From a virus, in the IMG/VR virus record IMGVR_UViG_3300033233_000010, positions 32,001-96,000 of that record: 64,000 nt of DNA; one strand, 5' to 3'. The notes under the pieces are model-generated. The model was not told where the DNA came from and did not search any database. It was given only the letters and a program-made list of their open reading frames with translations. Positions within the stretch are counted from its first letter, which is position 1. Every line of letters starts with the position of its first letter. Shown piece by piece: positions 2,688 through 27,879 of the stretch. Position numbers and translations under genes: made by a program.

Positions 2688-3135
2688 GGACGCCGCAAGG
2701 CCGACCGATCAACCTGATTGGGATGTCTGCATCGCATGGCGACGGATGCTCGTCGCCATGATGAATTCTTCGTGGGACATCGATGTCGCTGTCGAGCCGT
2801 TCCTGCGCAGCACGAGACGGCTCGTCGAGGCGCACTCCGATCCCGATGTCCAGACGGCAGCGCGCAAGCCTCTTCGCGCCGCCTGGATGCTGCTCAAGGC
2901 GAAGCGCTACTACGAGTGCTGCACGGCGGCGCTGGAGTGTCGAGTCCGCATCTTTGGCATCGAGGGGCCCGGTCGCATCGAGGTGGTCGGCCAAGCCCTG
3001 TGTCGAGCCATCCGAGGCGCTTACCCGGCTTCGCCGCCGGGGTTCGAGCGCGTGGGTCGGATGCGGCAGACCGACCGACCCAAGCTCGGCGGCTTCGACT
3101 GGAGTTCCATGCCGACGCCCGATGGAAACGACTGA
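2668..3135 (+). CDS. Hypothetical protein
   Basis: Best GC3 bias among the overlapping frames. Confidence 0.65.
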   Translation: MPRGNRRDAARPTDQPDWDVCIAWRRMLVAMMNSSWDIDVAVEPFLRSTRRLVEAHSDPDVQTAARKPLRAAWMLLKAKRYYECCTAALECRVRIFGIEGPGRIEVVGQALCRAIRGAYPASPPGFERVGRMRQTDRPKLGGFDWSSMPTPDGND

Positions 3136-3153
3136 TCGGGGTAGAACCCTGGC

Positions 3154-4008
3154 GTGACGGACGCGAAACGACCGCTGCCCTATCTCATCGCGCGCATCGC
3201 CCACGACGGCAGGCCGTGGCCGGATGACGGCACCTTCGATAAGATCGCGGCGTCCAAGGGGGCCATCCTCGGCGATGACGGTTGGTTCACGCGCGGTCGA
3301 CGCCGAGGCCGGTGGTATCTCGACGTGTCGCTGGCGAACTACGCGCCGATCATCGTGGCGCGCGAAAGGCTCAACGACATCCGCGCGCTCGAAGACCTGC
3401 GTTACCGCGCACAAGTCCACGTCGAGAGGGTACTGGAGCCGCTCTATCAGAAGTCCATCGCTCGGCTCCGGGCAGCTGACGACCCGCGGATCGTCCGCGG
3501 CGACAGGATCATGCGGATCGAGTTCACCAAGGACCACGTCTACTCGTCGGAGAGCTTTCCTACCGAGCGGGAGATCAAGGCCCCGGAGAACGCCGGAATC
3601 GTCGACAGGATCAGCGCAATCCCCACCCCGGACCACGAAGACTTCAAGGCCGGAGAGAACTGGCTGTTTCATCAGCGCGGAATCCACGCGGGTCTGTTCC
3701 GCGTGGGTCGCGCGGAGGCGGCGCTTCGCAAGGCGCTCGACCTCTACCGCCTCAAGCACCACCCGAAGGAGATGAGACTCCACTCGGACAGGCGTCCGAC
3801 CTTCGTCTTCATCATCAACGGGCGCTACTACCCGATCGGGCGCGAGGAGTACCAGAAGAACATCGTCATCTGGCCGCAGCTGTCCGACATCGTGGTCAAC
3901 TTAGACAAGGAGAACACGCGTGGCGAAGATCAAAGTAGTGGACGAGCTTCCGCCCGAGGTAGTGGCGATGCTCGCAGCTCTGTACTCGCGAAGCCCGAAG
4001 AGCGTTGA
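3154..4008 (+). CDS. Hypothetical protein
   Basis: 284-aa ORF with strong codon bias; GTG 6 nt after a TAGAAC element. Confidence 0.8.
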   Translation: MTDAKRPLPYLIARIAHDGRPWPDDGTFDKIAASKGAILGDDGWFTRGRRRGRWYLDVSLANYAPIIVARERLNDIRALEDLRYRAQVHVERVLEPLYQKSIARLRAADDPRIVRGDRIMRIEFTKDHVYSSESFPTEREIKAPENAGIVDRISAIPTPDHEDFKAGENWLFHQRGIHAGLFRVGRAEAALRKALDLYRLKHHPKEMRLHSDRRPTFVFIINGRYYPIGREEYQKNIVIWPQLSDIVVNLDKENTRGEDQSSGRASARGSGDARSSVLAKPEER

Positions 4009-4075
4009 CGAGCATCTGGAGCAGGTTCTCAAGCGTGGCCCCGACAAGTTCATGGACGACTACTACGTCGGCTAG
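3920..4075 (+). pseudogene. thyX: Orphaned 5' fragment (51 aa) of thyX
   Basis: AAGGAG RBS then GTG; MAKIKVVDELPPEVVAMLAALYSRSPKSVDEHLEQVLKRGPDKFMDDYYVG* aligns with residues 1-54 of the ThyX at 4915; not in the ORF track (<60 aa). Confidence 0.85.
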
Positions 4076-4112: not shown

Positions 4113-4955
4113 GTGGCCCATCGGATCTTGCCGCAAGAACACGTCCGTCGCGTCATCGAGATACACGGCACGCGTCTTCGTGTCGTAGACCACTACGTCG
4201 ATGCCCACACGAAGATCCGCTACGAGTGCCCGAGGCACGGACGGTTCTGGGCAGCGCCGAAGAACGTAGTCACCAGGCGCTCGGGTTGCCGTCGGTGCTA
4301 CGAAGCGACGGTTGGTCCACGGTGCCGAAAGACCCACGCGGTCTACACCGCGGAGGCGCGTGCCGTCGGGATTCGAGTAATCGACCGCTACGTCACCGCT
4401 CTGACGCCGATCCGACATCGATGCGCTAAGGGTCACACCTGGAGCACGTCACCGAACCAGTTGCTCTCGGGCTATGGATGTCCGCTCTGCGACCGATCTC
4501 AATTCAGGCGCCGCCCAGTTCGAGTCGGGAACCGGGAAGTGATGCTCCAAGGTTCCGAGGGAGTAGCTGTTGCACTCATGCTTGCCGCCGGTGTCGATCC
4601 TGACGACCTGGCGTTCACAACCGCAGAGGGCCGCCCGACGTTCCGATACAGATTCGACGGTCGGGTTCGCGTCTACGTGCCCGATGCCTTTCAGCTTTCG
4701 GTGCGTCAGGTCATCGAGGTAAAAAGCGCGGTAACGCTCGGGCTCTACGACTCGACACTGTTTGCGCAAGTGAAAGCCAAGGCCCGAGCCGTCGTAGCTG
4801 CCGGACTCTCGTATCGGCTGATGGTCATCCACCGGAAGCAAAACATCGACATCGGTTCGAGCTGGTTTCGGTGGTCGTGGCGAACACTTAACACGCGATT
4901 CAGGAGGAAGACCCATGCCCAAGATCGTCGTTCTCGACGGAAACGACGTTCCTAG
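4113..4955 (+). mobile_element. Free-standing putative homing endonuclease (Zn-ribbon repeats plus PD-(D/E)XK-like domain)
   Basis: Two C-x2-H/G…GCxxC repeats (CPRHG…GCRRC, CAKGH…GCPLC) and YVPDAF…VIEVKS; lower GC3; lies between two thyX 5' ends. Confidence 0.7.
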
Positions 4956-6246
4956 CCCGGAAGACGTGGCGATGCTCGCAGCCATGTACTCACGAGATCC
5001 GCGATCGGTGCTCGACCATCTCGTCCAAGTGAAGCAACGCGGCTCGGCGAAGTTCCACGAGCAGTTTTATGTGGGCTACGGTCACAAGAGCATCGGCGAC
5101 TGCGGCTCGACGACGGTCTTCTTCGAGGGTGTCTCGATGTTGGCGGCGAAGGCCGTGCAGGACACCCCGCTGTACAACGGCCAGGAAGCCTCGACACGCT
5201 ACATCGACTTCTCCACACAGCTGATTCTCAACCCGCTCGCAACGCCGGGTGGGAAGGCTGTGCAGGACGCCTGGATGGCGCTCTACGCAGACACCATCGC
5301 GGCGCTCAAACCGCTTCTCGCCGAGCGCTACCCCCGGCAACCAGACCAGAAAGAGTCGGTGTGGACGAAGGCGATCGCCGCCAAAGCGTTCGACATCGGG
5401 CGGTCCCTGATACCAGCCGGCGGAACCACCAACGTCGCGTGGCACGTCAACCTGCGCCAAGCGTACGACCACAGCCGGGAGATGCGGAATCACCCGCTCC
5501 CCGAGATCGCCGGCCTTGGCGTGGGCGGAATCGAATGCCTGAAGGAGAAGTACCCGTCGAGCTTCTCCCACGAGGCGAAGCTCAAGGACGACAAGGCGCG
5601 CGAGAATTACAAGGCGGAGGAGCACTACATCGCGAAGAGCATGACGCGCTTCGCTTACTTCGCCGACACCGACGCCGTAGACGGGTTCTACGCCGACTTC
5701 GGCAAGCTCGACCTCCGCGCGATGGAGCCGCTCGGCGACCTCCTCGCCTCGCGACCGCCGCGGACCGAGCTGCACCAGCGCTTCCGCCAGTACGGGGTGA
5801 TCACGTTCAAGTTTCTCCTCGACTTCGGCAGTTACCGCGACCTCCAGCGGCAGCGGAGCGCTGTGCAGGAGATGCCGCTCCTCTCAATGCGCCACGGCTT
5901 CCACCCGTGGTACATCGAGCAGATGCCGCTCGGAACCGAAGCGCAGATCGCAGCGATCGGCAAGCTGGTCGAGCGGCTCCCAGCCGACGACTTCACCCGC
6001 CAGTACTACGTGCCCATGGGCTTCCGCTGCCCGGTCGTGATGACGTGTCCGCTCCCCTCGGCGGTCTACATCGCCGAGTTGCGAAGCGGGAACACCGTCC
6101 ATCCCACCCTCCGCGTGATCGCGCAGAAGATGGGCGAAGTGCTCAAGAAGACGATCCCCGAGCTGGCGATGCACCACGATATGTCGCCCGACTCGTGGAA
6201 CGTGAGGCGCGGAACGCAGGACATCGTAAAGAAAGCATCGGCGTAG
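4915..6246 (+). CDS. thyX: Flavin-dependent thymidylate synthase, two-domain type
   Basis: GHKSIGD, QEASTRY and RDLQRQR motifs; AGGAGG RBS. Confidence 0.85.
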   Translation: MPKIVVLDGNDVPSPEDVAMLAAMYSRDPRSVLDHLVQVKQRGSAKFHEQFYVGYGHKSIGDCGSTTVFFEGVSMLAAKAVQDTPLYNGQEASTRYIDFSTQLILNPLATPGGKAVQDAWMALYADTIAALKPLLAERYPRQPDQKESVWTKAIAAKAFDIGRSLIPAGGTTNVAWHVNLRQAYDHSREMRNHPLPEIAGLGVGGIECLKEKYPSSFSHEAKLKDDKARENYKAEEHYIAKSMTRFAYFADTDAVDGFYADFGKLDLRAMEPLGDLLASRPPRTELHQRFRQYGVITFKFLLDFGSYRDLQRQRSAVQEMPLLSMRHGFHPWYIEQMPLGTEAQIAAIGKLVERLPADDFTRQYYVPMGFRCPVVMTCPLPSAVYIAELRSGNTVHPTLRVIAQKMGEVLKKTIPELAMHHDMSPDSWNVRRGTQDIVKKASA

Positions 6247-15780: not shown

Positions 15781-16962
15781 CTACTTGTGGTGGAACTTCT
15801 TGAGGGTTTGCGCCAACCTCGCGCGCTTGCCTTCCTTGCCACCCTTCTCGGCGGCGGCGGCGAGCTTCCCGGCTGGGATCTTCTTGCCCTCGGGCACGCC
15901 CATCTGCTTGTGGAGCGCGCCCTTCTTCATGTGCATCGCGGCGATCCACTTCTTCGCCTCGTCGAGCTGCATGCCGGCGGTCCGATCTTCGGCGACCTCG
16001 GCCTGGGCAGACGCGTCGCGAAGCGAAGCGGCGCCGACACGCGCCTCGCGGAGCATGCTCGCGCTCGGCTGGCTCACGCCCTCCTTGACGGTGATGTCGT
16101 CCTTGGCGAGCGGTGCGGTGCCGCCGTTGGCCGAGTTGAACTGGCCGGGCTCGACCTCGGCGGGCGAGCGGAGCTTGCCGCCGAGACCCTTGAGCGCCTT
16201 GCCGATCTTCTCGCCCTTGGGCTTGGGCACCGACTCGCCCTCGACGGCGGGCTCGGCGTCGACGGGCGGAGTCGTCGTCTCGGTCGTCGGCTTCACTCCG
16301 AGGTCGGCTGCGTTGCGGAGCCTGGCCGCGTCGTCGGCGGCGAACTGCGCGATGTCGGCGATCGTGAACGCCGGCTTGTTGCTCACGCCGGTTCCGAGTT
16401 CGAGCGCCGGGTTCGACTCGTGCTGAGTCTTGAGCGACTTTTCCAGCGCAGCGCCGTCGACCAGCATCGGTCGTTCGAGGAACGCCGTGGGGAGGCGCAT
16501 CGCGGCTCCGGCGTTCCCGGACGTGGTCATCTCGGCGACCAGCTTGTCCTTCAGGGCCGGGAGATCCTCGATCGCGATGTTGAGGATCTCACCGGCGACG
16601 AACTGCTTGATCGCCTTGGCGTCATCACCACTGACACCGTACTGGCGCATGTCGGGCACGCGTCCCATGCGCATCGCCACCTCGGCGATGCCCATGACGA
16701 TCGTCGGGTTGAGCCCACGATCCTCGGCGAACTTGTCGATCTCGGTCTTCCGCGAGTGGAGGACCAGCTCGCGCGTGTCGGGCGACATGAGCTTGGCGTC
16801 GCGGCTGAACCCGCCCACCGGCGCTTCGAGCGGCGAGTCTTCGTCCATGCGCATCGCGGCGGGAGAGTTGAGCGCAGCGCCGGGACCGCCGCTACGAACC
16901 CGATGGTTCGCCGGATCGCTCGGGTCCCACTTGTTCTTGCCGTTCTTTCCGTTGGTACTCAT
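15781..16962 (-). CDS. Putative virion protein, paralog of 16959..18692, with a C-terminal basic peptide
   Basis: Shares three modules with the upstream paralog; ends in AKKWI…ARLAQTLKKFHHK. Confidence 0.8.
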   Translation of the reverse strand: MSTNGKNGKNKWDPSDPANHRVRSGGPGAALNSPAAMRMDEDSPLEAPVGGFSRDAKLMSPDTRELVLHSRKTEIDKFAEDRGLNPTIVMGIAEVAMRMGRVPDMRQYGVSGDDAKAIKQFVAGEILNIAIEDLPALKDKLVAEMTTSGNAGAAMRLPTAFLERPMLVDGAALEKSLKTQHESNPALELGTGVSNKPAFTIADIAQFAADDAARLRNAADLGVKPTTETTTPPVDAEPAVEGESVPKPKGEKIGKALKGLGGKLRSPAEVEPGQFNSANGGTAPLAKDDITVKEGVSQPSASMLREARVGAASLRDASAQAEVAEDRTAGMQLDEAKKWIAAMHMKKGALHKQMGVPEGKKIPAGKLAAAAEKGGKEGKRARLAQTLKKFHHK

Positions 16963-18692
16963 CGTTCTCCTCGTAGTACGGCAGCGCCGACGCCCGATCC
17001 GCGAAGCACCCTAGCGCTGGGGGTGTCCAGGTCTTCCTTCACCGAGATGTCGAAAGCCGGAAGCGTGGCGGTGCCATGCGAGGCGTTGTTGAACTGCCCC
17101 GGCTCCGCTTCGGCTGGCGACCGCAGCTTGTTGCCGAGCCCCCTGAGCACCCGACCGATGCGCTCACCCTTGGGCTTCGGGATTGTGTCCTCGGAGAACA
17201 CGTCGGCGAGCGTGTGGTGCTGCTCGGTGTGCTCCTCGGGGAGTCCGGCGAGCTTGCGACCGTGCTTATGCGCGGCGGCGAACGCCGCATCTCCCTTTGC
17301 CCTGTCGGGGTGCTGGAGGACACTCTTCCAGTCGCCAGCCGCCATGTGCTTGAAGAGGTCGCCGAAGTGGGGATCGTCGTGGGCTTGCTTGGCAAGCTCC
17401 GCGGCTCCGGCTTGGGCGTGCTCGGTGGAAGTACGGTTCTTCGGATCGGACTTCTCCGCCTTCACCTTCGCCATGATCTTGTCCATCATCCCCTGGATCG
17501 GCGACTTCGGCTTGGCCGCGGCCTGCGCCGCCATCTTCGCGTGTTGAGCGGCCAACTTCGCCTCGCGCTCAGCCGCGGCCTTTTCAGCGGCCTCCTTCTT
17601 CGCCTTCTCTTGCCCTTCCTTCTTCGCCTTCTCCTCCGGGGTATCGGGCTGGTCGAGATCGAGCTTGGAGAAGCGCTTCCAGATGTGCGAGTCGACGCCG
17701 GGGGGCACGGGCTTCTCACCGGACTTCGCCGGTTCGGCTGCGGCAGATGCAGCCTTGGGCGCGGGTCCTGCCGTGGGCTCCGGCTTGGCGTCCGCGTTGT
17801 GGATCGGGTGATCAGGCGCGTGCCCCATCGAGCGAGGCACGCCGAAGACCATCTTCCAGCCTTCGGGGAGATGCCCCTTCGTCTTGAGCTGCGCGAGCGC
17901 CGTCGACTGCTCCGACGTGAGCTTCTTGGTGGGGTCGATGTGGTCCGAGTGCGGCGAGCCGGAACCGTAGTGGATGTTCAGGCTGTGACCTGGCTTCACG
18001 TCGAGGTGCCCGATGCCCTTCATCGCGATGGAGTGAAGCACGGGGCCGGGCGTGACCTTGCCCCAGTCGGCCTCGTGCTTCTCCTTGTGGCCCTTCGTCT
18101 GTTGGCTGACCCAGGCTTCGAGATCCTTGTGGACCTTGTGCTGAGGGGACTTGACCGCGTGCTTCGTGTCAGGGTTGCTGCTGCTCGGCTTGCCATGCTT
18201 GACGACGTGATGCACAGCCGCCTTCACCGGCTCCGGCAGATCCTTGAAGTTCTGGTGCTTGGTGAGGTCGTGGATCGTCGGCGTGCCCTCGAAGTTCTCC
18301 ACGACTGGGCGCAGAGCGCGACGGGCGTCCTCGTCGGCGAGCTGGGCGATGTCGGCGATGGTAAGCGCCGGCTTGTCGGACACGCCCGTCCCGAGGGAGA
18401 GCGTGGGGCGCGTGTTCTCGCGCTCGGCGATCTGTCGCTCCAGCTGACCGATGTCGATCATCGCGGGACGGCTCATGATCGCGGAGGCGAGGCGCATCGC
18501 CTGGGGACACGCTGGAGCATCGGCGCCGGAGTCCTCTTGCAACGGGCGGGGCTCCGTCTCGGGCTCCGGCGTCGGCTCCTGCTCCAGCGCCGGGAACATG
18601 GCGGAGGTGAGAGAGGCGCCAGGCCCGCCGTTACGAACCCGGTGATTGGCGGGATCGTTCGGGTCCCACTTCTTCTTGCCGTCCTTGCTCAT
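16959..18692 (-). CDS. Putative virion protein, His/Lys-rich paralog
   Basis: Start ATG 18692 (MSKDGKKKWDPNDPANHRVR) after GAGGG; ATGA overlap with the paralog. Confidence 0.8.
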   Translation of the reverse strand: MSKDGKKKWDPNDPANHRVRNGGPGASLTSAMFPALEQEPTPEPETEPRPLQEDSGADAPACPQAMRLASAIMSRPAMIDIGQLERQIAERENTRPTLSLGTGVSDKPALTIADIAQLADEDARRALRPVVENFEGTPTIHDLTKHQNFKDLPEPVKAAVHHVVKHGKPSSSNPDTKHAVKSPQHKVHKDLEAWVSQQTKGHKEKHEADWGKVTPGPVLHSIAMKGIGHLDVKPGHSLNIHYGSGSPHSDHIDPTKKLTSEQSTALAQLKTKGHLPEGWKMVFGVPRSMGHAPDHPIHNADAKPEPTAGPAPKAASAAAEPAKSGEKPVPPGVDSHIWKRFSKLDLDQPDTPEEKAKKEGQEKAKKEAAEKAAAEREAKLAAQHAKMAAQAAAKPKSPIQGMMDKIMAKVKAEKSDPKNRTSTEHAQAGAAELAKQAHDDPHFGDLFKHMAAGDWKSVLQHPDRAKGDAAFAAAHKHGRKLAGLPEEHTEQHHTLADVFSEDTIPKPKGERIGRVLRGLGNKLRSPAEAEPGQFNNASHGTATLPAFDISVKEDLDTPSARVLRGSGVGAAVLRGER

Positions 18693-18809
18693 CGGGGTCC
18701 CTCGGTTGCCGTCTCGGGCTCTAGACGAACTGGAATAGGGTAGCACCTAAGAGTCTACCCCTAAAGCCCGTTCGATGCCTAGCGTCCGCCGACGACCCAT
18801 CGGCCCAGT

Positions 18810-19193
18810 TCAGTTCGGTCCGGTTCCGGCAACGGCCCGAGCCATGTCCTCGCGCGTTCGCTTGCTCGGGCCGAAGTAGAACGCCTTGGCGCCGAACAGA
18901 CGAACGGCGTAGTAGTACCGCCACGCCGCGAACCTGTAGAACAGGCGCTTGAACCAGGTGCTCTGCCTACGCGCGTGTTCAGCCATCGCCTTGTGGAACC
19001 GCCGGTCGGCATCGTAGCGATCACGCTTCGTGCAGCCGAGCCAGTAGTCGAAATCGTGAGTCTCACATGGACAACCGAAAACCAGATCTGGAATTATCCA
19101 TGAGATGCCTCTAGGTCCGCACCCGTTACATACCGCCTTCCGTTCGGCTGGCGTAAGGTCTTCAAACCGTAAGGGACGAGCCGGAGTGGTCAC
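18810..19193 (-). CDS. Phospholipase A2-like protein (chimeric: cassette-supplied N-terminus)
   Basis: CNGCG…CETHDFDY…DADRRF, a PLA2-type His-Asp layout; GTG overlaps the endonuclease TGA. Confidence 0.7.
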   Translation of the reverse strand: MTTPARPLRFEDLTPAERKAVCNGCGPRGISWIIPDLVFGCPCETHDFDYWLGCTKRDRYDADRRFHKAMAEHARRQSTWFKRLFYRFAAWRYYYAVRLFGAKAFYFGPSKRTREDMARAVAGTGPN

Positions 19194-20032
19194 TTGATTA
19201 CCCTTGCGATCTTCCAACCGTGATGAGCTATCTTACGCCCATGCACAACCTCGTAGAACCCCCATTCACCCATTCCGCGCTCGCGGCAAAAGACCTTGAG
19301 GTTGTCAGTCTCGAAGACAGTCCCGCTCGGATCGGTGATCGTGTAGCGAAACGTGCAGTGCGCCTCGCTGATCTTACGCCGATGTTCGGGCGTCTTTGGT
19401 TTTCCCGTGTGCAGGCAGCGTAGACGCTCGACTTCCTTTAGCGAAAGACGACGACCCAGGTGCGTCGCGCTAATCTTTGCCCGCGCCTCCGGCGAGTGTG
19501 TCTGGCCCCACATCGAGTTCTTCTTGCCGAGCTTGCACACCCGCATCTTCCTGATAGAGGCTGAGCGATGGCGTCTGCCGAAACCGCCGAGACCTCCCGG
19601 TGTGCAGTTGTAACCGTTCTGAATAGATGCCAGCCTGGCGATCCAGTGCCGCTCGGCGGTATCAAGTTCGGCTTGGTTAGAACACGCAGCCACCACTGAC
19701 ACTGTAAACGCGGTCCAACCATACTTGGCTATTGCGCACGCCAGCTTAGGCTGTCTTCGGCAATGACCTCTTCGGTAATTGTCCAGGCGATGCGCTAGAT
19801 CAACCGTCTGCCCGACATAGACACGACCACTCGGGCTACGAAGACAATAGACGACGCCGAAGTGGTCGCACGCAGACTCAAAGACGAAATTCGATACGCT
19901 GCTCTCGATACTCAAACACGGACACCCGAAGATCAGATCGGGGATGATCCACGAGACGCCCTTGGGACCGCAGCCGTTCGAGACAGCTGCGATCTCTTGC
20001 TTGGTCAGGACTTCCCAGGTGATCGAGGTCAC
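19190..20032 (-). mobile_element. GIY-YIG homing endonuclease with NUMOD3-like repeats, fused in-frame to the original 39-aa PLA2 N-terminus
   Basis: GVVYCL…VYVGQT, ERHWI, GYNCTPGG, HSPEARAKIS, KTPEHRRKIS; first 39 aa duplicate the PLA2-like N-terminus. Confidence 0.85.
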
Positions 20033-20035
20033 GCG

Positions 20036-20347
20036 CTAGTCCGTGAAGCGGTACGAGAAGCTCTGGTGCCCGGCGTCCTTGACCTTTACGGTGACGGACC
20101 CATCGCCCTTGGTGCCGAAGCTCGGTCCGAGCGTGAGGACGAGTTTGCCGTTGGCGTCGAGCACCCCATCCACCGGAGAAATGTACATGGGCGCTGTGGT
20201 CTCCAGCGTGACCTTCTTGCCCGCCCCCGCCGTGCCGTTCTTGTGCTCGATGGTGAGCTTCTGCAACGAGGACTGATCGCCCTTGACGAGAACGGGTGCG
20301 CCGCTCTCGATGGCGGTGTTGTCTTTCTTGACGACGAAGCCAGCCAT
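20036..20347 (-). CDS. Ig-like structural protein
   Basis: All-beta pattern, GVLDANGKLVLTL; similar to the C-terminus of 20360..20911. Confidence 0.65.
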   Translation of the reverse strand: MAGFVVKKDNTAIESGAPVLVKGDQSSLQKLTIEHKNGTAGAGKKVTLETTAPMYISPVDGVLDANGKLVLTLGPSFGTKGDGSVTVKVKDAGHQSFSYRFTD

Positions 20348-20359
20348 GATCGTTCCTTC

Positions 20360-20911
20360 CTAGTTCCAGTTCGCGGTGATGTGGCGCTGCGGGAGCTTGT
20401 CCGACGTGATGATGAGATCGCAAGTGCCACGTTCGAGCGAAGATCCGACCGTGAACTCCAGCTTGCCGTTCGCGTCGAACGCGCCACCCGTCTTGCTGAT
20501 CGGCATCCGGGGGGCGATGATCTTCACCACCTCGCCGTGGCCGTCCGAGTCGTTGCCGTTCCCGTCCTTGAACTTGAGCGTGATCGTCGTGGCCGAGTCC
20601 AGGCCCGCGTTCTTGTCGATCGTACCGGGCTCTCCGATGTCCGTGGTCCCGCCGTCGATGGTCACGATGAAGCTCTCCGCGACACGGTCCACGAGCCCAT
20701 CGAGCACGGCCTTCTCGTCCGTGTCGAGGTCACGAACGCCCGTGACGATGACGTTCGTCTCGTCGGAGTTGAAACCGCTCTGGTCCCAGAACGTCGGGAG
20801 CGCCGCTTCGACGAGGGCGGACAGGTGATCGCTCATCTGTCCGGTGAAACCGCCTCCGCAGCCCGGGATGTTGGCAACCGGGTAGACGTACGGTTGAGCG
20901 ACGGTGGTCAT
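20360..20911 (-). CDS. Structural protein with Ig-like C-terminal domain
   Basis: AGGAGG RBS; GAFDANGKLEFTV. Confidence 0.7.
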   Translation of the reverse strand: MTTVAQPYVYPVANIPGCGGGFTGQMSDHLSALVEAALPTFWDQSGFNSDETNVIVTGVRDLDTDEKAVLDGLVDRVAESFIVTIDGGTTDIGEPGTIDKNAGLDSATTITLKFKDGNGNDSDGHGEVVKIIAPRMPISKTGGAFDANGKLEFTVGSSLERGTCDLIITSDKLPQRHITANWN

Positions 20912-20928
20912 GGGTCCTCCTTTTCCTT

Positions 20929-21052
20929 CGAGCGCTCAGCTTGCGCTCGGGCAGAGTCATCTTCGGACCAAGGGTGTCAAACTGCCCATAGAAATCCGAA
21001 GCCAGACCGGTCTTGTCGCTCGCAAGACCTTACGTGGTTCCGAAGATACGAC
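20929..21052 (-). other. Candidate structured RNA leader (multi-stem)
   Basis: ~15-bp imperfect outer stem (21035-21052/20956-20970), 7-bp inner hairpin (21009-21029), 7-bp hairpin (20929-20949) just before the RBS. Confidence 0.45.
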
Positions 21053-21586
21053 CTAAGAAGTCATACCGCGCGCGTCGCGCAGCGTGGTGTCGGGAATCGA
21101 AGCGTCAAACTGCGCGAAGTCCCACGTCACCTTCGGGGGAGCGTCCGACGCGAGGATCTCATCCTTGGTCGTGTAGTAGTAAGCGAGGATCGAGTCGATC
21201 CAACCGAGTGCCTTCTCGATGTATGCGGCGCGGTCTGTGTAGCCCTTGGCGAGCGCCTGTGACCAGAGGGCGAGGAGGCTCGCCTGCGACCCCTCATCGT
21301 AGACGCCGAAAATGTACGCCTTGCACGCGGCACGTAGCTCGCCGATCCGGGCCTCGCGTGCTTCGGGGAGAACGTCATGGGCGTCGATGAGGCTTCCGAT
21401 GAGCGCAATCTCATCAGCGGTCGCGTCGTCTGGCAGATGGACGATTGTTCGTGCCTTGTCGTCCACGCCTTCCGGGTCGCCCGAAACGCCAAAGAAGCGA
21501 CCCTTGCCGCCCTTCGCGAGCTGCGCCGCGATCTCCGCGTCGAGCTTCCCCGTGTCGGTGATCTTGGCGAACTTGAGGTCGATCAT
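21053..21586 (-). CDS. Tail-fibre-associated (assembly/chaperone-like) protein
   Basis: Directly downstream of the fibre gene; helical C-terminal domain as in fibre-assembly proteins. Confidence 0.55.
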   Translation of the reverse strand: MIDLKFAKITDTGKLDAEIAAQLAKGGKGRFFGVSGDPEGVDDKARTIVHLPDDATADEIALIGSLIDAHDVLPEAREARIGELRAACKAYIFGVYDEGSQASLLALWSQALAKGYTDRAAYIEKALGWIDSILAYYYTTKDEILASDAPPKVTWDFAQFDASIPDTTLRDARGMTS

Positions 21587-21587
21587 C

Positions 21588-24500
21588 TTAGGCCACCAGC
21601 TTGAGCAGAATGAGAGACCGGTTAAGCATCGAGCCGGTGCCAGCCGATACGCGCCAGCGTCCTTCTACTGCACCGACTCCAGTTGTCGTAATGACCGCGC
21701 ACGTCATAAACGGGGTGCGGTAGTTCGCGTTGTGCTCGTCTGAGCCCGCTTCCGTTCCCGAAACCTGTGAGCCGTTGAACCAAATGCTCACCGTGCTCAG
21801 AGCCGTGGCTGTCGAGTTGCCGTAACCACCGCGGAAAATCGCCAGCCAGACCCCCGCCGTGGGGGTGTCGGTCATGCTCGTCGCGAGCACGTCCGTCGTG
21901 CTTGCCGTCGTGATCGTGCCTGTGGCAACGACCGGAGTACGGGCGCGAGGCGGAGTCGCCGTCCCTATGGCTCGCCAGCGCGAGGACGTGTTGTCGTAGA
22001 GAAGCACGACGCACGCCGAGGGGGCGAGGTTGATGTCCGCACTGTCGAACGTGAAACGGTTCGCCGCCGTGGACGACGCGCTCTCGTGCAGTAGTGAGAT
22101 GACGAAGCTCCCTGTGTTGACAATGACGAGCATGCGCCCGTCTGCGCCTGTCGCGATGCCCGTAATGTTTCGGGCCGCGTCGGTGTTGATTCGGAGCAGC
22201 ACGACGTTCGAGAGCCCAGTCGGGGAATAGTCGTTCTGGTTCGCCGTGATCTGCGCCGGGGAAAGCGTGCCGTTGAGCGAGAACGCCCCCGAGGCGCGTT
22301 CGACGGTGTTCGAGGCGTTGCGCCACCGCGACGACGTGCCGTCGTAGGCGAGCGTGATCGAGTGCCCAGGGCCGAGCACCACGTCAAGAGAGGCGAACGA
22401 GAAGCGGTTCGCCGCCGTGGACGAAGCCGACTCGTGCGAGAGCGTGATCGGGAATGAGCCCACGTTCTCGATGACGAGAATGCGACCTGTGGCGCCGCCC
22501 TGGAGGCCGGTGACCGTGCGCGCGGCGTCCGAGTTGATGCGCATGGTGTTCGCCGTCGAAAGGCTCGCAGGGTTGTAGTCGTTCTGGTCGGCGGTAATCT
22601 GCGCTGGACTGAGGATACCGGCAAGCGCGAAGGCGATGCTCGATTGTTTGACGGTCGGATTGGCGAATGTTCCCGACAGGTCTCCGCCCGCCGCGCCCGT
22701 TGGAGTGCGCGCGTCGGACAGACGCGCATCGTCACCCTGACAGAACGTGCCAGTAGCCGAGCCGAACGCCGCCAGCGCGTGTACGTGGTCTGCACGAGAC
22801 AGCGAAGTCGATGTTCCCTCAGCGTTAGCTGAGCCAGGCGGGTTTGCTGCCGCCGCTGCGGTAGTAATATCGTGCTTGTGGTCGGCTCTCGCAGGCTCCC
22901 CGCTTGTGCCGATAGCCGCAGCCGCTTTCGTGACGTTGGCTGGCGCGGTGTTCGACTGGTGGGCGTGATCGGATCGGGCAAGCGTCGTCGCGGTTCCTTC
23001 GGCGGATGCGGTAGCCACACCCGTCGCAGCCGGAGCCGCTGTGGTCACATCGTGCTTGTGATCGGCCCTGGCCGGCTCTCCGCTCGTACCAATGGCGGCA
23101 GCGGCCTTGGTTACGTTTGCGGGCGCGGTGTTGGACTGGTGGGCGTGGTCGCTGCGGGCAAGGGTCGAAGCCGTGCCCTCCGCAGAAGCGGTCGCGACGC
23201 CGGTAGCGCCGGGGGCAGCGGTCGCCTGGCGCGAGGCAGAAACAGCACGCCACCTAGTAGAAGTGCTGTCGTAGTGAAGTATGACGCACTCATCGGTCTG
23301 AAGTACTAGGTTGGCGGCGTCGGTAAGCGCGAATCGGTTTGCTGCGGTGGACCCAGCGCCCTCGTCGGTCAGAGTGATGGGAAACGAACCGACGTTATGG
23401 ATCGCGACGACGCGACCAGACGAACCGGTAGTCAGGCCGGTGATGCTGAATCCGGGTGTAGAAGCTGAGAGACGCAAGAACGAGGCGGTGGCAATCCCGG
23501 TGGGGGCGTAGTCGTTCGTGTTGGCTGCAATGGTCGTCGGCGTGATGACTCCGTCGATCGCCAACGTTGCCGCGAAGACGCCTCTGTTGTTGTCCGCGAC
23601 GAGCGCGCCAGCGACACGATAGCCGCCGAACTGCGTGTTGTAGTCCTGCTGCCTGAGACCGCTCGCGGCCCATTGGTTGTCCATGCCATGAACAAAACCT
23701 CTGGCGGCGAGCGTAGCTGCGTAGGTCGCGCCGAGAGACCACTGACCGTCGTCGGCGTGGACCTCCGCGAAAGTGAGCGTCCCATCCTGGTCCTCGATGT
23801 GAAGCAGGATGTCGCCCTCGGCTTCACCAGCCGAAATGAAGACGCCGTTGCCGGATGGGCCGCCTCGAAAGGCCGCAAAGTAACCGGCTGGAATCGGACG
23901 CGTAGCGTCTGCCGGCCCCACACGGAGCCGCGAGCATGCCGAGATGGTGGAGGCTCCGAAAACTCGCCATCGGCTCGACGTGGAGTCGTAACGGATGATG
24001 CAGCCGTCTTCGGGGTTGAGCGTCAGGTCCGTCCCGTCTTGGAGCGAGAAGCGGTTTGCTGCGGTAGATCCCGCACCCTCGTCGGTCAACGTGATGGGAA
24101 ACGAGCCGACGTTGGTCAGAACGAGCAATCGACCGTCTGCGCCGCCCGTGATCCCCGTGATGCTGAACCCAGGTGTCGAGGCGCTAAGACGTAGCGTGTT
24201 CGCCGTGCTCAGGCCAGTCGGGGTGTAGTCGTTCTGGTCAGCGCCGATGGTCGTGGGGGAGATGATGCCGGTGAGCGCGAACGTGGTCGAAGACTGGAGC
24301 ACGAGAGGGCCGGGGTACGTTCCGCCGAGATCCTGCGAGGCTGGTCCCGATGGCGATCCGCCGCTCCCGCCACCTGAGATCGCACGCCAGCGCGAAGTAG
24401 TGCTGTCGTACTGAAGGAGCGCAACCGAATCGGGAGACATGCTCATGTCGGCGGTGAGCGCAAAGCGGTTTGCCGCCGTCGAGCCCGCATCCTCATCCTT

Positions 24501-25424
24501 GAGCGTGATCGCGAACGAGCCGATGTTGTGAACGACCAGAATTCGACCGCTTGCCCCTCCCGCCAGTCCGGTGATATTGAACGCACCCGATGACGTGAGC
24601 CGCAGGACGGCGGCGGTCGAGAGGCTGGCCGGGTTGTAGTCGTTCTGATTCGCACCGATAGAAGCCGGACTGAGCACACCGGTAAGCGCAAAAGCGATAC
24701 TGCTTTGTGCAACTGTGGGGTTAGCGAAGGTTCCGCTGAGATCACCGCCCGCCGCTCCCGTCGGAGTACGCGCATCCGAAAGCCGAGAGTCGGTACCCTG
24801 ACAGACCGTGCTCGTCGTCGTCCCGTATGGGTCGTCTGCTCCGATCGCCCGCCACCGAGCCGACGTGGCGTCGTACTGGAGTGAGATCGTCTTGTTCGGC
24901 GTGAGGATGAAGCTCGCCGCTCCGCGGAGCGAGAATCTATTCGCCGCTGTGCTGTTCGTGTCCGAGTCAGTCAGCGTGATGTTGAACGATCCGACGTTGT
25001 GGACTTGGACCAGCCGTCCGGTTGCGCCTGCCGCGAGGCCCGTAACGTTTACCGCCGTCGAAGCTGCGATGCGGAGAAGCCCGGCGTTGCCGAAGCCAGT
25101 CGGGTTGTAGTTGTTCTGGCTGCTGCCGATCGTGGGCGGCGTGAGCACCACGTTGCCGGCGTTGTTGGCCGCCTCCGTGGGCGGGGTCGGATTGTGCGCG
25201 GCGATAAGACCACCGGCGGGGTTGCTCGTGTCGTTATCGAGCGTCGTCTTATCCCCGGCGGAGAGGGCGCTGACGAAGGTGATCGAGAGCACGTCGCCGT
25301 TGCGCGAGATGTCCTGAAGCGCCGTTGCGATGGAAGACGCTCTGATCTCGATGACGAGATTGTCCTCGAAACATCCGCCGGACGGGAAGTCGGTCGTGAT
25401 CTGATAGGTATAGCTCTGGGCCAC
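21588..25424 (-). CDS. Long tail fibre / receptor-binding protein with repeated domains
   Basis: Six copies of a ~95-aa domain (QNDY.P…LRL…ITG..GG..GR…NxGSF.ITL..E…S.AANRF…YD.TSSRWR) and DH.H motifs; GTG overlaps the upstream TAG. Confidence 0.85.
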   Translation of the reverse strand: MAQSYTYQITTDFPSGGCFEDNLVIEIRASSIATALQDISRNGDVLSITFVSALSAGDKTTLDNDTSNPAGGLIAAHNPTPPTEAANNAGNVVLTPPTIGSSQNNYNPTGFGNAGLLRIAASTAVNVTGLAAGATGRLVQVHNVGSFNITLTDSDTNSTAANRFSLRGAASFILTPNKTISLQYDATSARWRAIGADDPYGTTTSTVCQGTDSRLSDARTPTGAAGGDLSGTFANPTVAQSSIAFALTGVLSPASIGANQNDYNPASLSTAAVLRLTSSGAFNITGLAGGASGRILVVHNIGSFAITLKDEDAGSTAANRFALTADMSMSPDSVALLQYDSTTSRWRAISGGGSGGSPSGPASQDLGGTYPGPLVLQSSTTFALTGIISPTTIGADQNDYTPTGLSTANTLRLSASTPGFSITGITGGADGRLLVLTNVGSFPITLTDEGAGSTAANRFSLQDGTDLTLNPEDGCIIRYDSTSSRWRVFGASTISACSRLRVGPADATRPIPAGYFAAFRGGPSGNGVFISAGEAEGDILLHIEDQDGTLTFAEVHADDGQWSLGATYAATLAARGFVHGMDNQWAASGLRQQDYNTQFGGYRVAGALVADNNRGVFAATLAIDGVITPTTIAANTNDYAPTGIATASFLRLSASTPGFSITGLTTGSSGRVVAIHNVGSFPITLTDEGAGSTAANRFALTDAANLVLQTDECVILHYDSTSTRWRAVSASRQATAAPGATGVATASAEGTASTLARSDHAHQSNTAPANVTKAAAAIGTSGEPARADHKHDVTTAAPAATGVATASAEGTATTLARSDHAHQSNTAPANVTKAAAAIGTSGEPARADHKHDITTAAAAANPPGSANAEGTSTSLSRADHVHALAAFGSATGTFCQGDDARLSDARTPTGAAGGDLSGTFANPTVKQSSIAFALAGILSPAQITADQNDYNPASLSTANTMRINSDAARTVTGLQGGATGRILVIENVGSFPITLSHESASSTAANRFSFASLDVVLGPGHSITLAYDGTSSRWRNASNTVERASGAFSLNGTLSPAQITANQNDYSPTGLSNVVLLRINTDAARNITGIATGADGRMLVIVNTGSFVISLLHESASSTAANRFTFDSADINLAPSACVVLLYDNTSSRWRAIGTATPPRARTPVVATGTITTASTTDVLATSMTDTPTAGVWLAIFRGGYGNSTATALSTVSIWFNGSQVSGTEAGSDEHNANYRTPFMTCAVITTTGVGAVEGRWRVSAGTGSMLNRSLILLKLVA
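22860..23219 (-). repeat. Tandem 180-nt (60-aa) repeat in the tail fibre
   Basis: Units 23040-23219 and 22860-23039 are 57/60 aa identical. Confidence 0.9.
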
Positions 25425-26758
25425 TAGGCTGTGACCTCTTCGACGAGCAGGCTCGCGCTTTCGTCTTCGCGCGTGATCGGCCTTACTTGCCCCGTCCCGG
25501 AACTGACGCGCCATTGAACGACAACGACGTGAGCGCCAGCTGTGAGTCCTGTGAGCTTGAGGCTTACGGCCATGGCCGTGACGCCCGAGCCACCGTTGGA
25601 TTTCGTGCTGCCACCGCGCCGAACGATGCCATCCACGACCACGCGGAAGAAGACGACAGCGTTATTCGTTCCGTTCGATGCGCTTCCAAGCGACTGAACG
25701 ATGAGCGCACCGCCGGTGGTCGTGATGTCGATTCTGAGCACATCCTGCGTCGTCGCAGTAACGTCGGCGACGAGACCGCCGGTGCTCATGGTTCCGGTGC
25801 CACCCGTACAGCCAGTGAATTGATTGCCTCCGCTCGTCCCGGTGTAGGACACGAGTTGCGGGCCGTTACTGGTCGTTATCAGAAGCGTGCCGGCGGCGGC
25901 GAAGCCCGTCGTCGAGGCGACGTTGATGGTTCCAGTAGGCAGCGAGACGCCGTTGGAACCGGCTGCGATCGTCGTTCGGAGTCGGAAGAATACGAGGCCG
26001 CCGGTGCTCATGGTGCCGGTGCCGCCGGTACAACCGGTGAAGGTCGTGGCGCCTGTGCCCGTGTAGGTAACGATCTGCGGACCCGCGCTCGTCAAGACGA
26101 CGATCTGTCCGGCAGCGGCGAAGCCCGTCGTCGAGGCGACGTTGATGGTTCCAGTCGGCAGCGAGACGCCGTTTGAGGCCGCAGCGATGGTTGTGTTCGC
26201 CGCAGGCCACGTCGTCGCGGTCGTGGTCTGATTCGACGTGACTTCCGTCCACTGCGTCTGAACGATTCCACCAGCGCCGGAGGCGCCGCCAGCCGCGCCC
26301 TGAATACGCCAGCGAGATGACGTAGCGTCGTAGGCGAGGGTAACGATGGCACCGCCGACGAGCGTGACGTTGCCACCAGCAAGCGTGAAGCGGTTGGCCG
26401 CGGTCGAGGAAGCAGACTCACTGATGAGCGTGATCGTGTTCGAGTCGATGTTGATGAGCGTGAGAAGGCGCCCGCTCGTTCCTCCAGCGATGCCGGTGAT
26501 GTTGACGGCGACCGAAGACGTGAGTCGAAGTGTTGACGCGGTCGCAAGCCCGGTCGGGCTGTAGTTGTCCTGGTTGGCCGCGAGCGAAGTCGGCGAAATG
26601 ACGCCGGTCAGCGCGAACGTCTCGGAACCGGCAATCGCTTTGAGGAGAGTAGCCCGAACAGCGGGAAGCGTGGGAGTGCCGCCATCGTCCACGAGGGCAA
26701 CGATGTCTCCGATGAAGGTGTTGATCTCTCGGATCTGGTCGGCGGCGATCCCACTCAT
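25424..26758 (-). CDS. Second fibre-like structural protein
   Basis: One copy of the fibre domain plus two TTIAA.SNGVSLPTGTINVASTTGFAAAG repeats; C-terminal domain resembles that of the main fibre. Confidence 0.8.
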   Translation of the reverse strand: MSGIAADQIREINTFIGDIVALVDDGGTPTLPAVRATLLKAIAGSETFALTGVISPTSLAANQDNYSPTGLATASTLRLTSSVAVNITGIAGGTSGRLLTLINIDSNTITLISESASSTAANRFTLAGGNVTLVGGAIVTLAYDATSSRWRIQGAAGGASGAGGIVQTQWTEVTSNQTTTATTWPAANTTIAAASNGVSLPTGTINVASTTGFAAAGQIVVLTSAGPQIVTYTGTGATTFTGCTGGTGTMSTGGLVFFRLRTTIAAGSNGVSLPTGTINVASTTGFAAAGTLLITTSNGPQLVSYTGTSGGNQFTGCTGGTGTMSTGGLVADVTATTQDVLRIDITTTGGALIVQSLGSASNGTNNAVVFFRVVVDGIVRRGGSTKSNGGSGVTAMAVSLKLTGLTAGAHVVVVQWRVSSGTGQVRPITREDESASLLVEEVTA

Positions 26759-26781
26759 GGACTAATCTCTACGTCTCCGCT

Positions 26782-27879
26782 TTAGGTGAAGGATGCCGGG
26801 CTCTCGATCTGGATGCGGTCGCCCGACTTGACCTTCGTCGTGAAGCTGACCTGCGTCGTGGAGACCCAGGTTACATCCTCACCGGCGCCCTTGGCTTGGA
26901 GAACCCCGTTCCGCCAGATTTTGCAGCGCGAGTCGTCGCGGAACTCGGCAGCTGTGCTTGGTGTGATGGGCGTACCGAAGCTGGCGAACGTCGTGGTGGT
27001 TCCGGTGCCCGAGAACACGCCCGTCTGGACGTTGAACGTCTCTGCCGCCGCCGCCTGGGCTGTGACGTTGAACTGCCGGAAGGGGAGGCGCGTGACGACC
27101 GAAGTGGGGTCGATGATGTCGGGGAGCTGACCACCCGAGAGGAAGGCGCCGCGATCGAGGCCGTAGAAGCTCTGCTGGAACGGAAGTTGGAACTGGTAAG
27201 TTCCGGCGGGCAACGTGACCGCGACGATCGCGTCCGTCGTCGGGTTGATCTTGACGAAGCTGATCTGGAGGTTCTCGCTGGCCGCGGCGGCGATGGCCGT
27301 ACCGTCCGACGTGCCCGTGAGCACCTGGAGCAGACCGAACACGCGCGTGCCACCGTCGAGCGGCGGATCGTTCGTGCTCCCGATGAAGATGTCCACCTCG
27401 TTGAGCACCACAGCTGCCGCCGAAGCAGCCGTGGAGAGTCCGACGCCGAGCGTACCGGCGACGGTGAAGTTGGCCTCGGTCGCGGCGAGGTAGGCGTTGT
27501 TCTGGGTGCTCGACGGCCCGACCGCGATGATGCCCGAACCGCCAGCGACCATCGCGGACGAAACGAGCTTGCCGAGCGCGCCCGCGCCGAGCGTGAAGAC
27601 GTTGTTCGTGTCGCGCGGCGACTTGAACACGAACTTTTTGTCGTGAATTTGGCGCAAACCGAAGTTGTCGAGAGCCGTAGCGATGCTCACGAACCAGTCG
27701 GCGGTCCCAACCTGTGTCTGCGGGTCGATGATGCGCCGGACCTGCGATCGGAGCCCGTTCAGGTCGAACAGGATGTTCTGGTCTGCGGCGGCGGGCGTCT
27801 CCAGACCGGCACCGGGAGGAACGGTGTCGTCGTAGACATCCGAGTTGCGGATCTGTGTTTCTTGGTCGAGAGTGCTCAT
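26782..27879 (-). CDS. Putative tail/structural protein
   Basis: Thr/Gly/Ala-rich; C-terminus (WRNGVLQAKG…WVSTTQV) shared with 27892..28794. Confidence 0.7.
   Translation of the reverse strand: MSTLDQETQIRNSDVYDDTVPPGAGLETPAAADQNILFDLNGLRSQVRRIIDPQTQVGTADWFVSIATALDNFGLRQIHDKKFVFKSPRDTNNVFTLGAGALGKLVSSAMVAGGSGIIAVGPSSTQNNAYLAATEANFTVAGTLGVGLSTAASAAAVVLNEVDIFIGSTNDPPLDGGTRVFGLLQVLTGTSDGTAIAAAASENLQISFVKINPTTDAIVAVTLPAGTYQFQLPFQQSFYGLDRGAFLSGGQLPDIIDPTSVVTRLPFRQFNVTAQAAAAETFNVQTGVFSGTGTTTTFASFGTPITPSTAAEFRDDSRCKIWRNGVLQAKGAGEDVTWVSTTQVSFTTKVKSGDRIQIESPASFT

Follow-up and report, generated by a model that had tools for sequence, protein, structure and literature searches.

A putative splicing-free homing cassette that replaces the 5' end of a PLA2-like gene in an uncultured virus

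Main finding

We describe a PLA2-like gene of an uncultured virus that has probably been entered by a homing cassette requiring no splicing, in which an 851-bp foreign block, comprising a GIY-YIG nuclease gene and a diverged 43-codon allele of the target's own 5' end, was inserted into the gene and restored its reading frame from a new start codon. Homing endonucleases are usually said to persist in genes only within self-splicing introns or inteins, or to stay intergenic, and a cassette that rebuilds its target would be another route into coding DNA. The underlying principle is known from fungal mitochondria; what is new here is that a 5' end has been replaced, in a phage, with in-frame capture of the old start.

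The window analysed is a stretch of 64,000 nucleotides, bases 32001–96000 of the 121,783-bp uncultured-virus record IMGVR_UViG_3300033233_000010, which has an estimated completeness of 42% (CheckV) and a GC content of 64%. Coordinates are those of the window unless another sequence is named.

Organisation of the locus

The locus lies on the minus strand in a late virion-gene neighbourhood. Upstream of it, on the same strand, are a capsid-like gene (26782–27879), genes for tail-fibre-like proteins of 444 and 1308 aa, and genes for small Ig-like proteins; after it comes a low-complexity protein of 577–595 aa. Within the 444-aa tail-fibre-like protein, a segment of approximately 60 residues is repeated in tandem (25882–26230, minus strand), and the 1308-aa fibre protein downstream of it is likewise highly repetitive. 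An apparent duplication at 25848–26228, considered as a possible insertion scar, was rejected as being this internal repeat of the 444-aa protein.

Two overlapping ORFs make up the locus itself. The first (20032–19190, minus strand, 280 aa) begins with a GTG located 3 nt past the stop of the preceding Ig-like gene and encodes a PLA2-like stub followed by a GIY-YIG/NUMOD3 nuclease, while the second (19193–18810, minus strand, 127 aa, GTG start) is a complete PLA2-like gene. The TGA stop of the nuclease and the GTG start of the PLA2-like gene (19193) overlap as GTGA, and the sequence AAGGG is present 8 nt upstream of this GTG. No promoter or terminator was found in a scan of the coding strand of the locus.

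In coding order the locus divides into a resident 5' stub, the first 39 PLA2-like codons, in frame with the nuclease (19916..20032, minus strand); a nuclease core of 241 codons and a stop (19190..19915, minus strand; PF01541, PF07460, PHROG 314); a replacement 5' end, consisting of the first 43 codons of the complete PLA2-like gene (19065..19193, minus strand); and a resident 3' part of 84 codons and a stop (18810..19064, minus strand), which opens E-T-H-D-F-D-Y-W and thus contains the catalytic His-Asp. The nuclease gene and the replacement 5' end together form the presumed inserted block of 851 bp (19065..19915, minus strand), both edges of which correspond to a single point in the gene, just past G-C-P-C. 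The initial annotation of this DNA had recognised the same layout (39-codon stub, GIY-YIG ORF, GTGA overlap, complete PLA2-like gene) and had delimited the element at 19065–19915; the layout was reproduced and the anatomy of the element borne out as the 851-bp block of nuclease plus replacement end. One detail required correction, as the insertion had been placed three codons before the His-Asp and the junction is in fact two codons (E, T) before His46.

The nuclease

The 280-aa ORF contains a GIY-YIG domain at residues 59–142 (PF01541, 34.5 bits compared to a Pfam cut-off of 22.6) and NUMOD3 at residues 152–188 (PF07460, 45.7 bits in two stretches, above the Pfam cut-off), and its residues 58–277 match PHROG 314, annotated as homing endonuclease (E 3e-31). 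The catalytic columns G59, Y62, Y72, G74, R82, E127 and N142 are invariant in an alignment with nine relatives. By these matches the C-terminal part of the ORF is assigned to the GIY-YIG homing endonucleases of the I-TevI or Seg type, with a predicted catalytic site that is intact.

Relatives of the nuclease (at most 36% identity) have no counterpart to the first 39 residues, as they start at approximately residue 40–57 of the 280-aa ORF. An in-frame TTG is located right at the junction (19915–19913) and there is no other in-frame ATG, GTG or TTG in the nuclease core before the GIY motif; the left boundary of the block coincides with the sole possible position of a nuclease start codon.

The target gene and the site of insertion

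Taken alone, the 127-aa protein scores 17.8 bits against PF09056, below the Pfam cut-off of 29.4, whereas its closest homologues carry this domain. A profile built from 12 family members matches the Streptomyces PLA2 1FAZ (E 1.8e-7) and the Tuber PLA2 4AUP (E 7e-6), with the HD dyad aligned in both cases. Searching Foldseek with an AF2 model of the protein (pLDDT 82) gave microbial PLA2 throughout the top five matches (TM approximately 0.5, E 0.1–2). On this family-level match we place the protein with the prokaryotic and fungal secreted PLA2 (PF09056, group XIII/XIV). The gene sits in a virion/tail-fibre module (neighbours 16959–27879, minus strand), and its product could be a virion-associated lipase.

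The PLA2-like family is large (3162 clusters at E ≤ 0.001), and its 150 best members are without exception stand-alone proteins of about 90–190 aa; a search for longer or fused family forms gave one unrelated 225-aa extension. The gene is uninterrupted in the five closest homologues and in 10 viral loci, from genomes of 28–65% GC, and the closest homologue is only 53% identical. The G-C-P-C|E-T-H-D junction adjoins the most conserved block of the family, and homing sites usually abut highly conserved motifs. The AF2 model places the junction within helix 36–52, which bears His46 and Asp47; a protein split at this point is thus unlikely to be functional, and continuity of the gene must be restored.

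Splicing would provide such continuity if the nuclease were carried by a self-splicing group I intron or an intein, in which case the stub would be exon 1, joined to E-T-H-D and what follows. The summed length of the stub and the 3' part, 123 aa, is what is seen in homologues (120–123 aa), and a related GIY-YIG gene is found in an annotated terminase intron of Staphylococcus phage PH15. However, Rfam detected no family in the window at the gathering score, nor in the locus at E ≤ 10, and outside the nuclease ORF the block comprises approximately 50 nt and a translatable second N-terminus with its own start, which leaves no room for a ribozyme core. Furthermore, wherever the junctions are placed, the usual U ahead of the 5' splice site and the terminal G are never obtained together. 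An intein, or a split-intein 'fractured gene', is contradicted by the TGA that ends the nuclease ORF before the second copy and by the lack of a Hint domain in the Pfam search. A spliced transcript, which the initial annotation had named as an alternative, is therefore very unlikely.

Two 5' ends with similar proteins and dissimilar DNA

The stub aligns with residues 8–43 of the complete PLA2-like gene. Across NGCGP...GCPC the stub and the replacement end share 18 of 21 amino acids, and the codons for nine of these 18 identical residues differ, eight of the nine being A/T-ending in the downstream copy. These counts, first given in the initial annotation, were all reproduced in a codon-by-codon comparison. 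Over all 36 aligned codons there are 24 identical amino acids and 14 synonymous changes, and at 16 of the 24 third positions that differ, a G/C of the stub corresponds to an A/T of the replacement copy. The DNA of the two ends is 62% identical and their longest common run is 7 nt. Divergence has reached saturation at synonymous sites (pS 0.83), whereas nonsynonymous divergence is low in the last 22 codons (pN 0.09) and strong in the first 20 residues (pN 0.48).

The two ends are each other's closest known relatives. Both contain residues that are rare in the family, at positions which otherwise vary freely (S-W-I-I, G-C-P), and the signature WIIPDL[IV]FGCPC, common to both, is rare in approximately 150 family representatives and had no match elsewhere in the viral and metagenome contigs when searched as a back-translated pattern. 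The replacement end is thus closely related to the resident end in protein sequence, although the underlying DNA is thoroughly different. The stub retains all of the family-invariant residues (N, G, C, G, P, F, C). The Ser at the position of Cys22 was considered as a sign of stub decay and dismissed, as it is found in 18% of 155 family members. At residues 8–27 the downstream copy is nearer than the stub to both the family consensus and a distant phage contig, L003.

The record is a contig from an uncultured virus and the two copies could in principle be strain variants joined into a chimera during metagenome assembly. We regard this as extremely unlikely, since common runs of at most 7 nt offer no k-mer overlap by which the copies could be joined, the reading frames are exact at both junctions, and a second case of the same design is present 15 kb away.

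The composition changes along the locus: GC3 is 0.80 in the stub, falls to 0.65 in the nuclease core and to 0.44 across the 43 replacement codons, and returns to 0.82 over the remainder of the gene, compared to 0.75–0.88 in neighbouring genes. A GC3 of 0.44 or below is uncommon in the record, being reached by 0.5% of the 43-codon windows taken from its long GC3-rich ORFs. The GC content of the block 19065–19915 is continuously low at 0.55–0.57 (0.57 in the nuclease core), compared to 0.64 for the window. As the nuclease and the replacement end are both low in GC and are flanked by a stub and a 3' part with values typical of the genome, 19065–19915 looks like one imported unit, the labels of native and foreign being assigned to the two 5' ends by composition alone. 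The initial annotation had codon usage revert to GC-rich exactly after GCPC; the return to high GC3 is real, but it can be placed, and with it the right boundary of the block, only to within approximately 5 codons.

It had also been proposed that the N-terminus of the rebuilt gene was recoded. The A/T-biased synonymous divergence behind this wording is present, but a diverged allele that came in with the nuclease from a related phage of lower GC content fits it at least as well. Recoding in place would mean that the resident 5' end was duplicated and that its synonymous sites were then selected away from the recognition sequence of the nuclease. Selection acting on the DNA is indeed suggested by two observations: both copies have the rare residues in spite of saturation at synonymous sites, and there is an extra A/T bias, seen in the 16 of 24 third-position differences and in a GC3 for the new copy (0.44) that is below even that of the nuclease core (0.65; binomial p 0.005). 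On the other hand, low GC spans the whole block, the first 20 residues differ strongly in protein, and the replacement end at thyX (see below) has diverged in the ordinary way with little A/T bias. The rebuilt gene must moreover have been uncuttable when the cassette was formed, and with immunity needed from the outset a later, gradual recoding is hard to picture. Because of the low GC of the whole block and the absence of comparable A/T bias at thyX, recoding is not established, and we consider it improbable as the origin of the replacement end, which was probably a diverged allele brought by the nuclease and not the resident gene recoded in place.

A parallel case at thyX

The initial annotation noted the same architecture at thyX with a different nuclease family, and this proved to be real by self-BLAST, Pfam and PHROG comparison. 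The thyX case lies 15 kb from the PLA2-like locus on the plus strand and the two nuclease types are unrelated. It consists of a thyX stub of 51 codons with a TAG stop exactly at the junction (3920–4075), a gene for a 280-aa zinc-ribbon/DUF7487 nuclease (4113–4955; CapR, DUF4379 and DUF7487 in Pfam), which matches the 'endonuclease' families PHROG 681 and 559, and a complete thyX (4915–6246). The stub is 58% identical over 52 aa to residues 2–54 of ThyX (self-BLAST). Unlike the PLA2-like stub it is not fused to the nuclease, and GC3 goes from 0.78 (stub) through 0.68 (nuclease) and 0.72 (new 5' end) to 0.88 over the remaining thyX codons. Two free-standing nuclease genes were found in the record, and both (2/2) display the layout of stub, nuclease and rebuilt gene. 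No flanking gene duplication was detected by self-BLAST around the HNH domain(s) inside a 492-aa ORF located outside the window (G000:C1:15217–15753).

Relatives and generality of the design

Comparison of the region with 50,697 phage records yielded no match (megablast, tblastn). Relatives of the nuclease were not found in a scan of viral contigs, and a scan of metagenome contigs with the nuclease protein gave 222 pattern matches with no relative among them. Neither a close relative of this phage region nor an empty allele, presence/absence polymorphism or second copy of the cassette was found in any of the collections searched. A search for related phages with the capsid-like gene identified two contigs, of which L020 (the same contig as L003) contains an uninterrupted PLA2-like gene with 49% identity, with no nuclease remnants found upstream of it, while no PLA2-like gene was found in L021.

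The 11-mer TTGGAAGATCG occurs at 19207–19217 and at L003:3696–3706, in both cases 20–24 nt upstream of the GTG and in the same frame; it could be a conserved leader or a chance match. A separate observation concerns contig L013 (IMGVR_UViG_3300032023_000002), where positions 3260–3720 include a 22-residue PLA2-like N-terminal fragment (...ICNGCGPKG) that is immediately followed by a repeat of the 9 C-terminal residues of the adjacent 149-aa ORF (2838–3287), with a second MGFDLTG gene start beyond that repeat. From its sequence this looks like an insertion of approximately 390 bp flanked by a direct repeat, without a nuclease.

We also examined 11 phage loci from GenBank and metagenomes that contain the nearest-relative GIY-YIG genes. 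None (0/11) has a protein-level duplication across the nuclease, in a flank-duplication test in which both window loci, as controls, score clearly. On these sequences the insert-and-rebuild design is thus not a property of this GIY-YIG nuclease family. The description of the design as a general strategy, made in the initial annotation, is accordingly supported by two of two free-standing nucleases in one record and opposed by the 0/11 related GIY-YIG phage loci. These relatives include the gene in the PH15 terminase intron and, in Bacillus phage vB_BsuS-Goe14 (OL580764.1, 52818–56615), a GIY-YIG gene that lies between yonO_2 and yonO_1; yonO is an RNA polymerase gene, the locus has no duplicated segment, and judging from this arrangement the Goe14 yonO is either a split gene or contains an unannotated intron.

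These comparisons bear on the possibility that the PLA2-like locus is a one-off repair scar, in which a Seg-like nuclease that normally occupies intergenic DNA immediately 5' of PLA2-like genes entered this genome once, through repair of a break that was homologous on the downstream side only and illegitimate upstream, so that the stub is debris, the fusion accidental and the block incapable of self-contained homing. The ordinary nature of the nuclease relatives, which are free-standing or intron-borne genes without duplications, is consistent with this, as is the fact that neither cassette turned up a second time in the collections searched. Fusion to the nuclease is not a constant feature, given that the thyX stub is closed by a stop at its junction. 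The presence of the 11-mer upstream of both the new start and the L003 gene hints at a retained native 5' leader; however, the sharing is not significant by itself (BLAST E 0.49) and the 11-mer lies within the conserved C-terminal coding region of the nuclease. Further, if scars of this kind form seldom and do not spread, it would be coincidental for two independent ones with identical layouts to occur in a single 122-kb record. The stub has also kept every invariant residue, and the unit is minimal, its left boundary being the only possible nuclease start codon. We consider a one-off scar to be fairly unlikely.

Proposed mechanism and implications

The imported 5' end continues without a break into the resident 3' part, giving a full-length gene without RNA or protein splicing, and the start of the rebuilt gene is coupled to the nuclease stop. 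As the resident 39 codons form an in-frame leader, the nuclease can use the translation start of the resident gene. We count as support for insert-and-rebuild that the PLA2-like family is unsplit, that the junction is next to the His-Asp, and that the layout is the same at thyX. In the mechanism that we propose, the nuclease would cut nuclease-free alleles near the junction and repair would then copy the block, with the stub and upstream DNA serving as one homology arm and the 3' part of the gene as the other. Synonymous saturation of the replacement end would make the rebuilt gene uncuttable, and the repeats may be too diverged to recombine, which would prevent deletion of the nuclease.

The first cassette probably arose from a free-standing Seg-like nuclease just 5' of its target gene, which would have been captured during repair of a break with homology only on the 3' (downstream) side. 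Repair that is homologous only downstream of the break would give rise to a 5' duplication by construction, and may thus explain both the PLA2-like and the thyX loci. Whether phage homing endonucleases have here a third, splicing-free route into coding sequence, with a replacement 5' end driven by selection to synonymous saturation and thereby immune to cleavage, protection from deletion by repeat recombination and a native start captured to express the nuclease, making the design a general strategy as opposed to repair debris, is a broader proposal that we put forward tentatively, as possible and not as probable.

Such cassettes could generate mosaic genes with foreign 5' ends, together with orphan gene stubs, in phage genomes, and annotation pipelines would call a stub of this kind a fused or hypothetical ORF. 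The proposal also provides a testable rule, namely that diverged synonymous sites beside a nuclease would mark its recognition site.

Comparison with known systems

The free-standing nucleases SegF, SegG and MobE of T4-like phages undergo 'intronless homing' with co-conversion of flanking markers (PMC2988022, PMC2790892). As in those cases, a nuclease of GIY-YIG/NUMOD type adjoins the gene that it is thought to cut, and the genome bearing the nuclease has a variant, presumably resistant target that is co-inherited with it. However, the seg and mob genes are intergenic and have no duplicated gene fragment, whereas the phage cassette described here lies within coding sequence and a stub remains.

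Other systems also allow a nuclease to occupy a coding region while host function survives, by means of an accessory sequence; these include T4 MobA with the gene 60 bypass ('hop') cassette, Aeh1 nrdA, and the split-intein 'fractured genes' (PMC2677866). They achieve this through bypass, two-piece proteins or trans-splicing inteins, in contrast to the single rebuilt ORF observed here. The intron-encoded nucleases of I-TevI type, as in the PH15 terminase, belong to the same family, have the same domain order and are likewise inserted next to a conserved, functionally critical motif; in the present case there is no ribozyme, and a duplicated 5' end takes the place of splicing.

The closest likeness is found outside phages. 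Mobile ORFs (mORFs) in fungal mitochondria carry a foreign C-terminus of atp6, atp9, cox2 or nad3 (PMC3630166), and the resulting gene hybrids have been described for atp6 in Allomyces macrogynus, for atp6, atp9 (with a GIY-YIG nuclease), cox2 and nad3 in Glomus, for atp9 in Rhizopus and for cox2 in Mortierella (PMC3630166 and work cited there). When compared at the DNA level with the closely related G. irregulare, the carried ends show 64–81% identity and the native ends 91–98% (PMC3630166). In the fungal and the phage case alike, the endonuclease ORF is accompanied by a diverged version of one end of the gene that it targets. The corresponding resident end has been displaced but persists as a duplicate, and the copy adjoining the ORF keeps the gene whole without splicing. 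[quoted passage not shown]

The two differ in that fungal mORFs replace the 3' end and leave the old end downstream, whereas the phage cassette replaces the 5' end and supplies a new start codon, with the old start serving as leader for the nuclease, which is not so in the fungal mORFs. They also differ in host, a phage as opposed to an organelle, and in that mobility has been shown biochemically for the Allomyces atp6 mORF (PMC3630166), whereas for the phage cassette it is proposed. A search of the literature revealed neither a case in phages nor any account of a replaced 5' end. By analogy, the PLA2-like cassette may be seen as the 5'-end mirror image of the mobile-ORF gene hybrids of fungal mitochondria, a reading that would extend their principle to phages and to the starts of genes.
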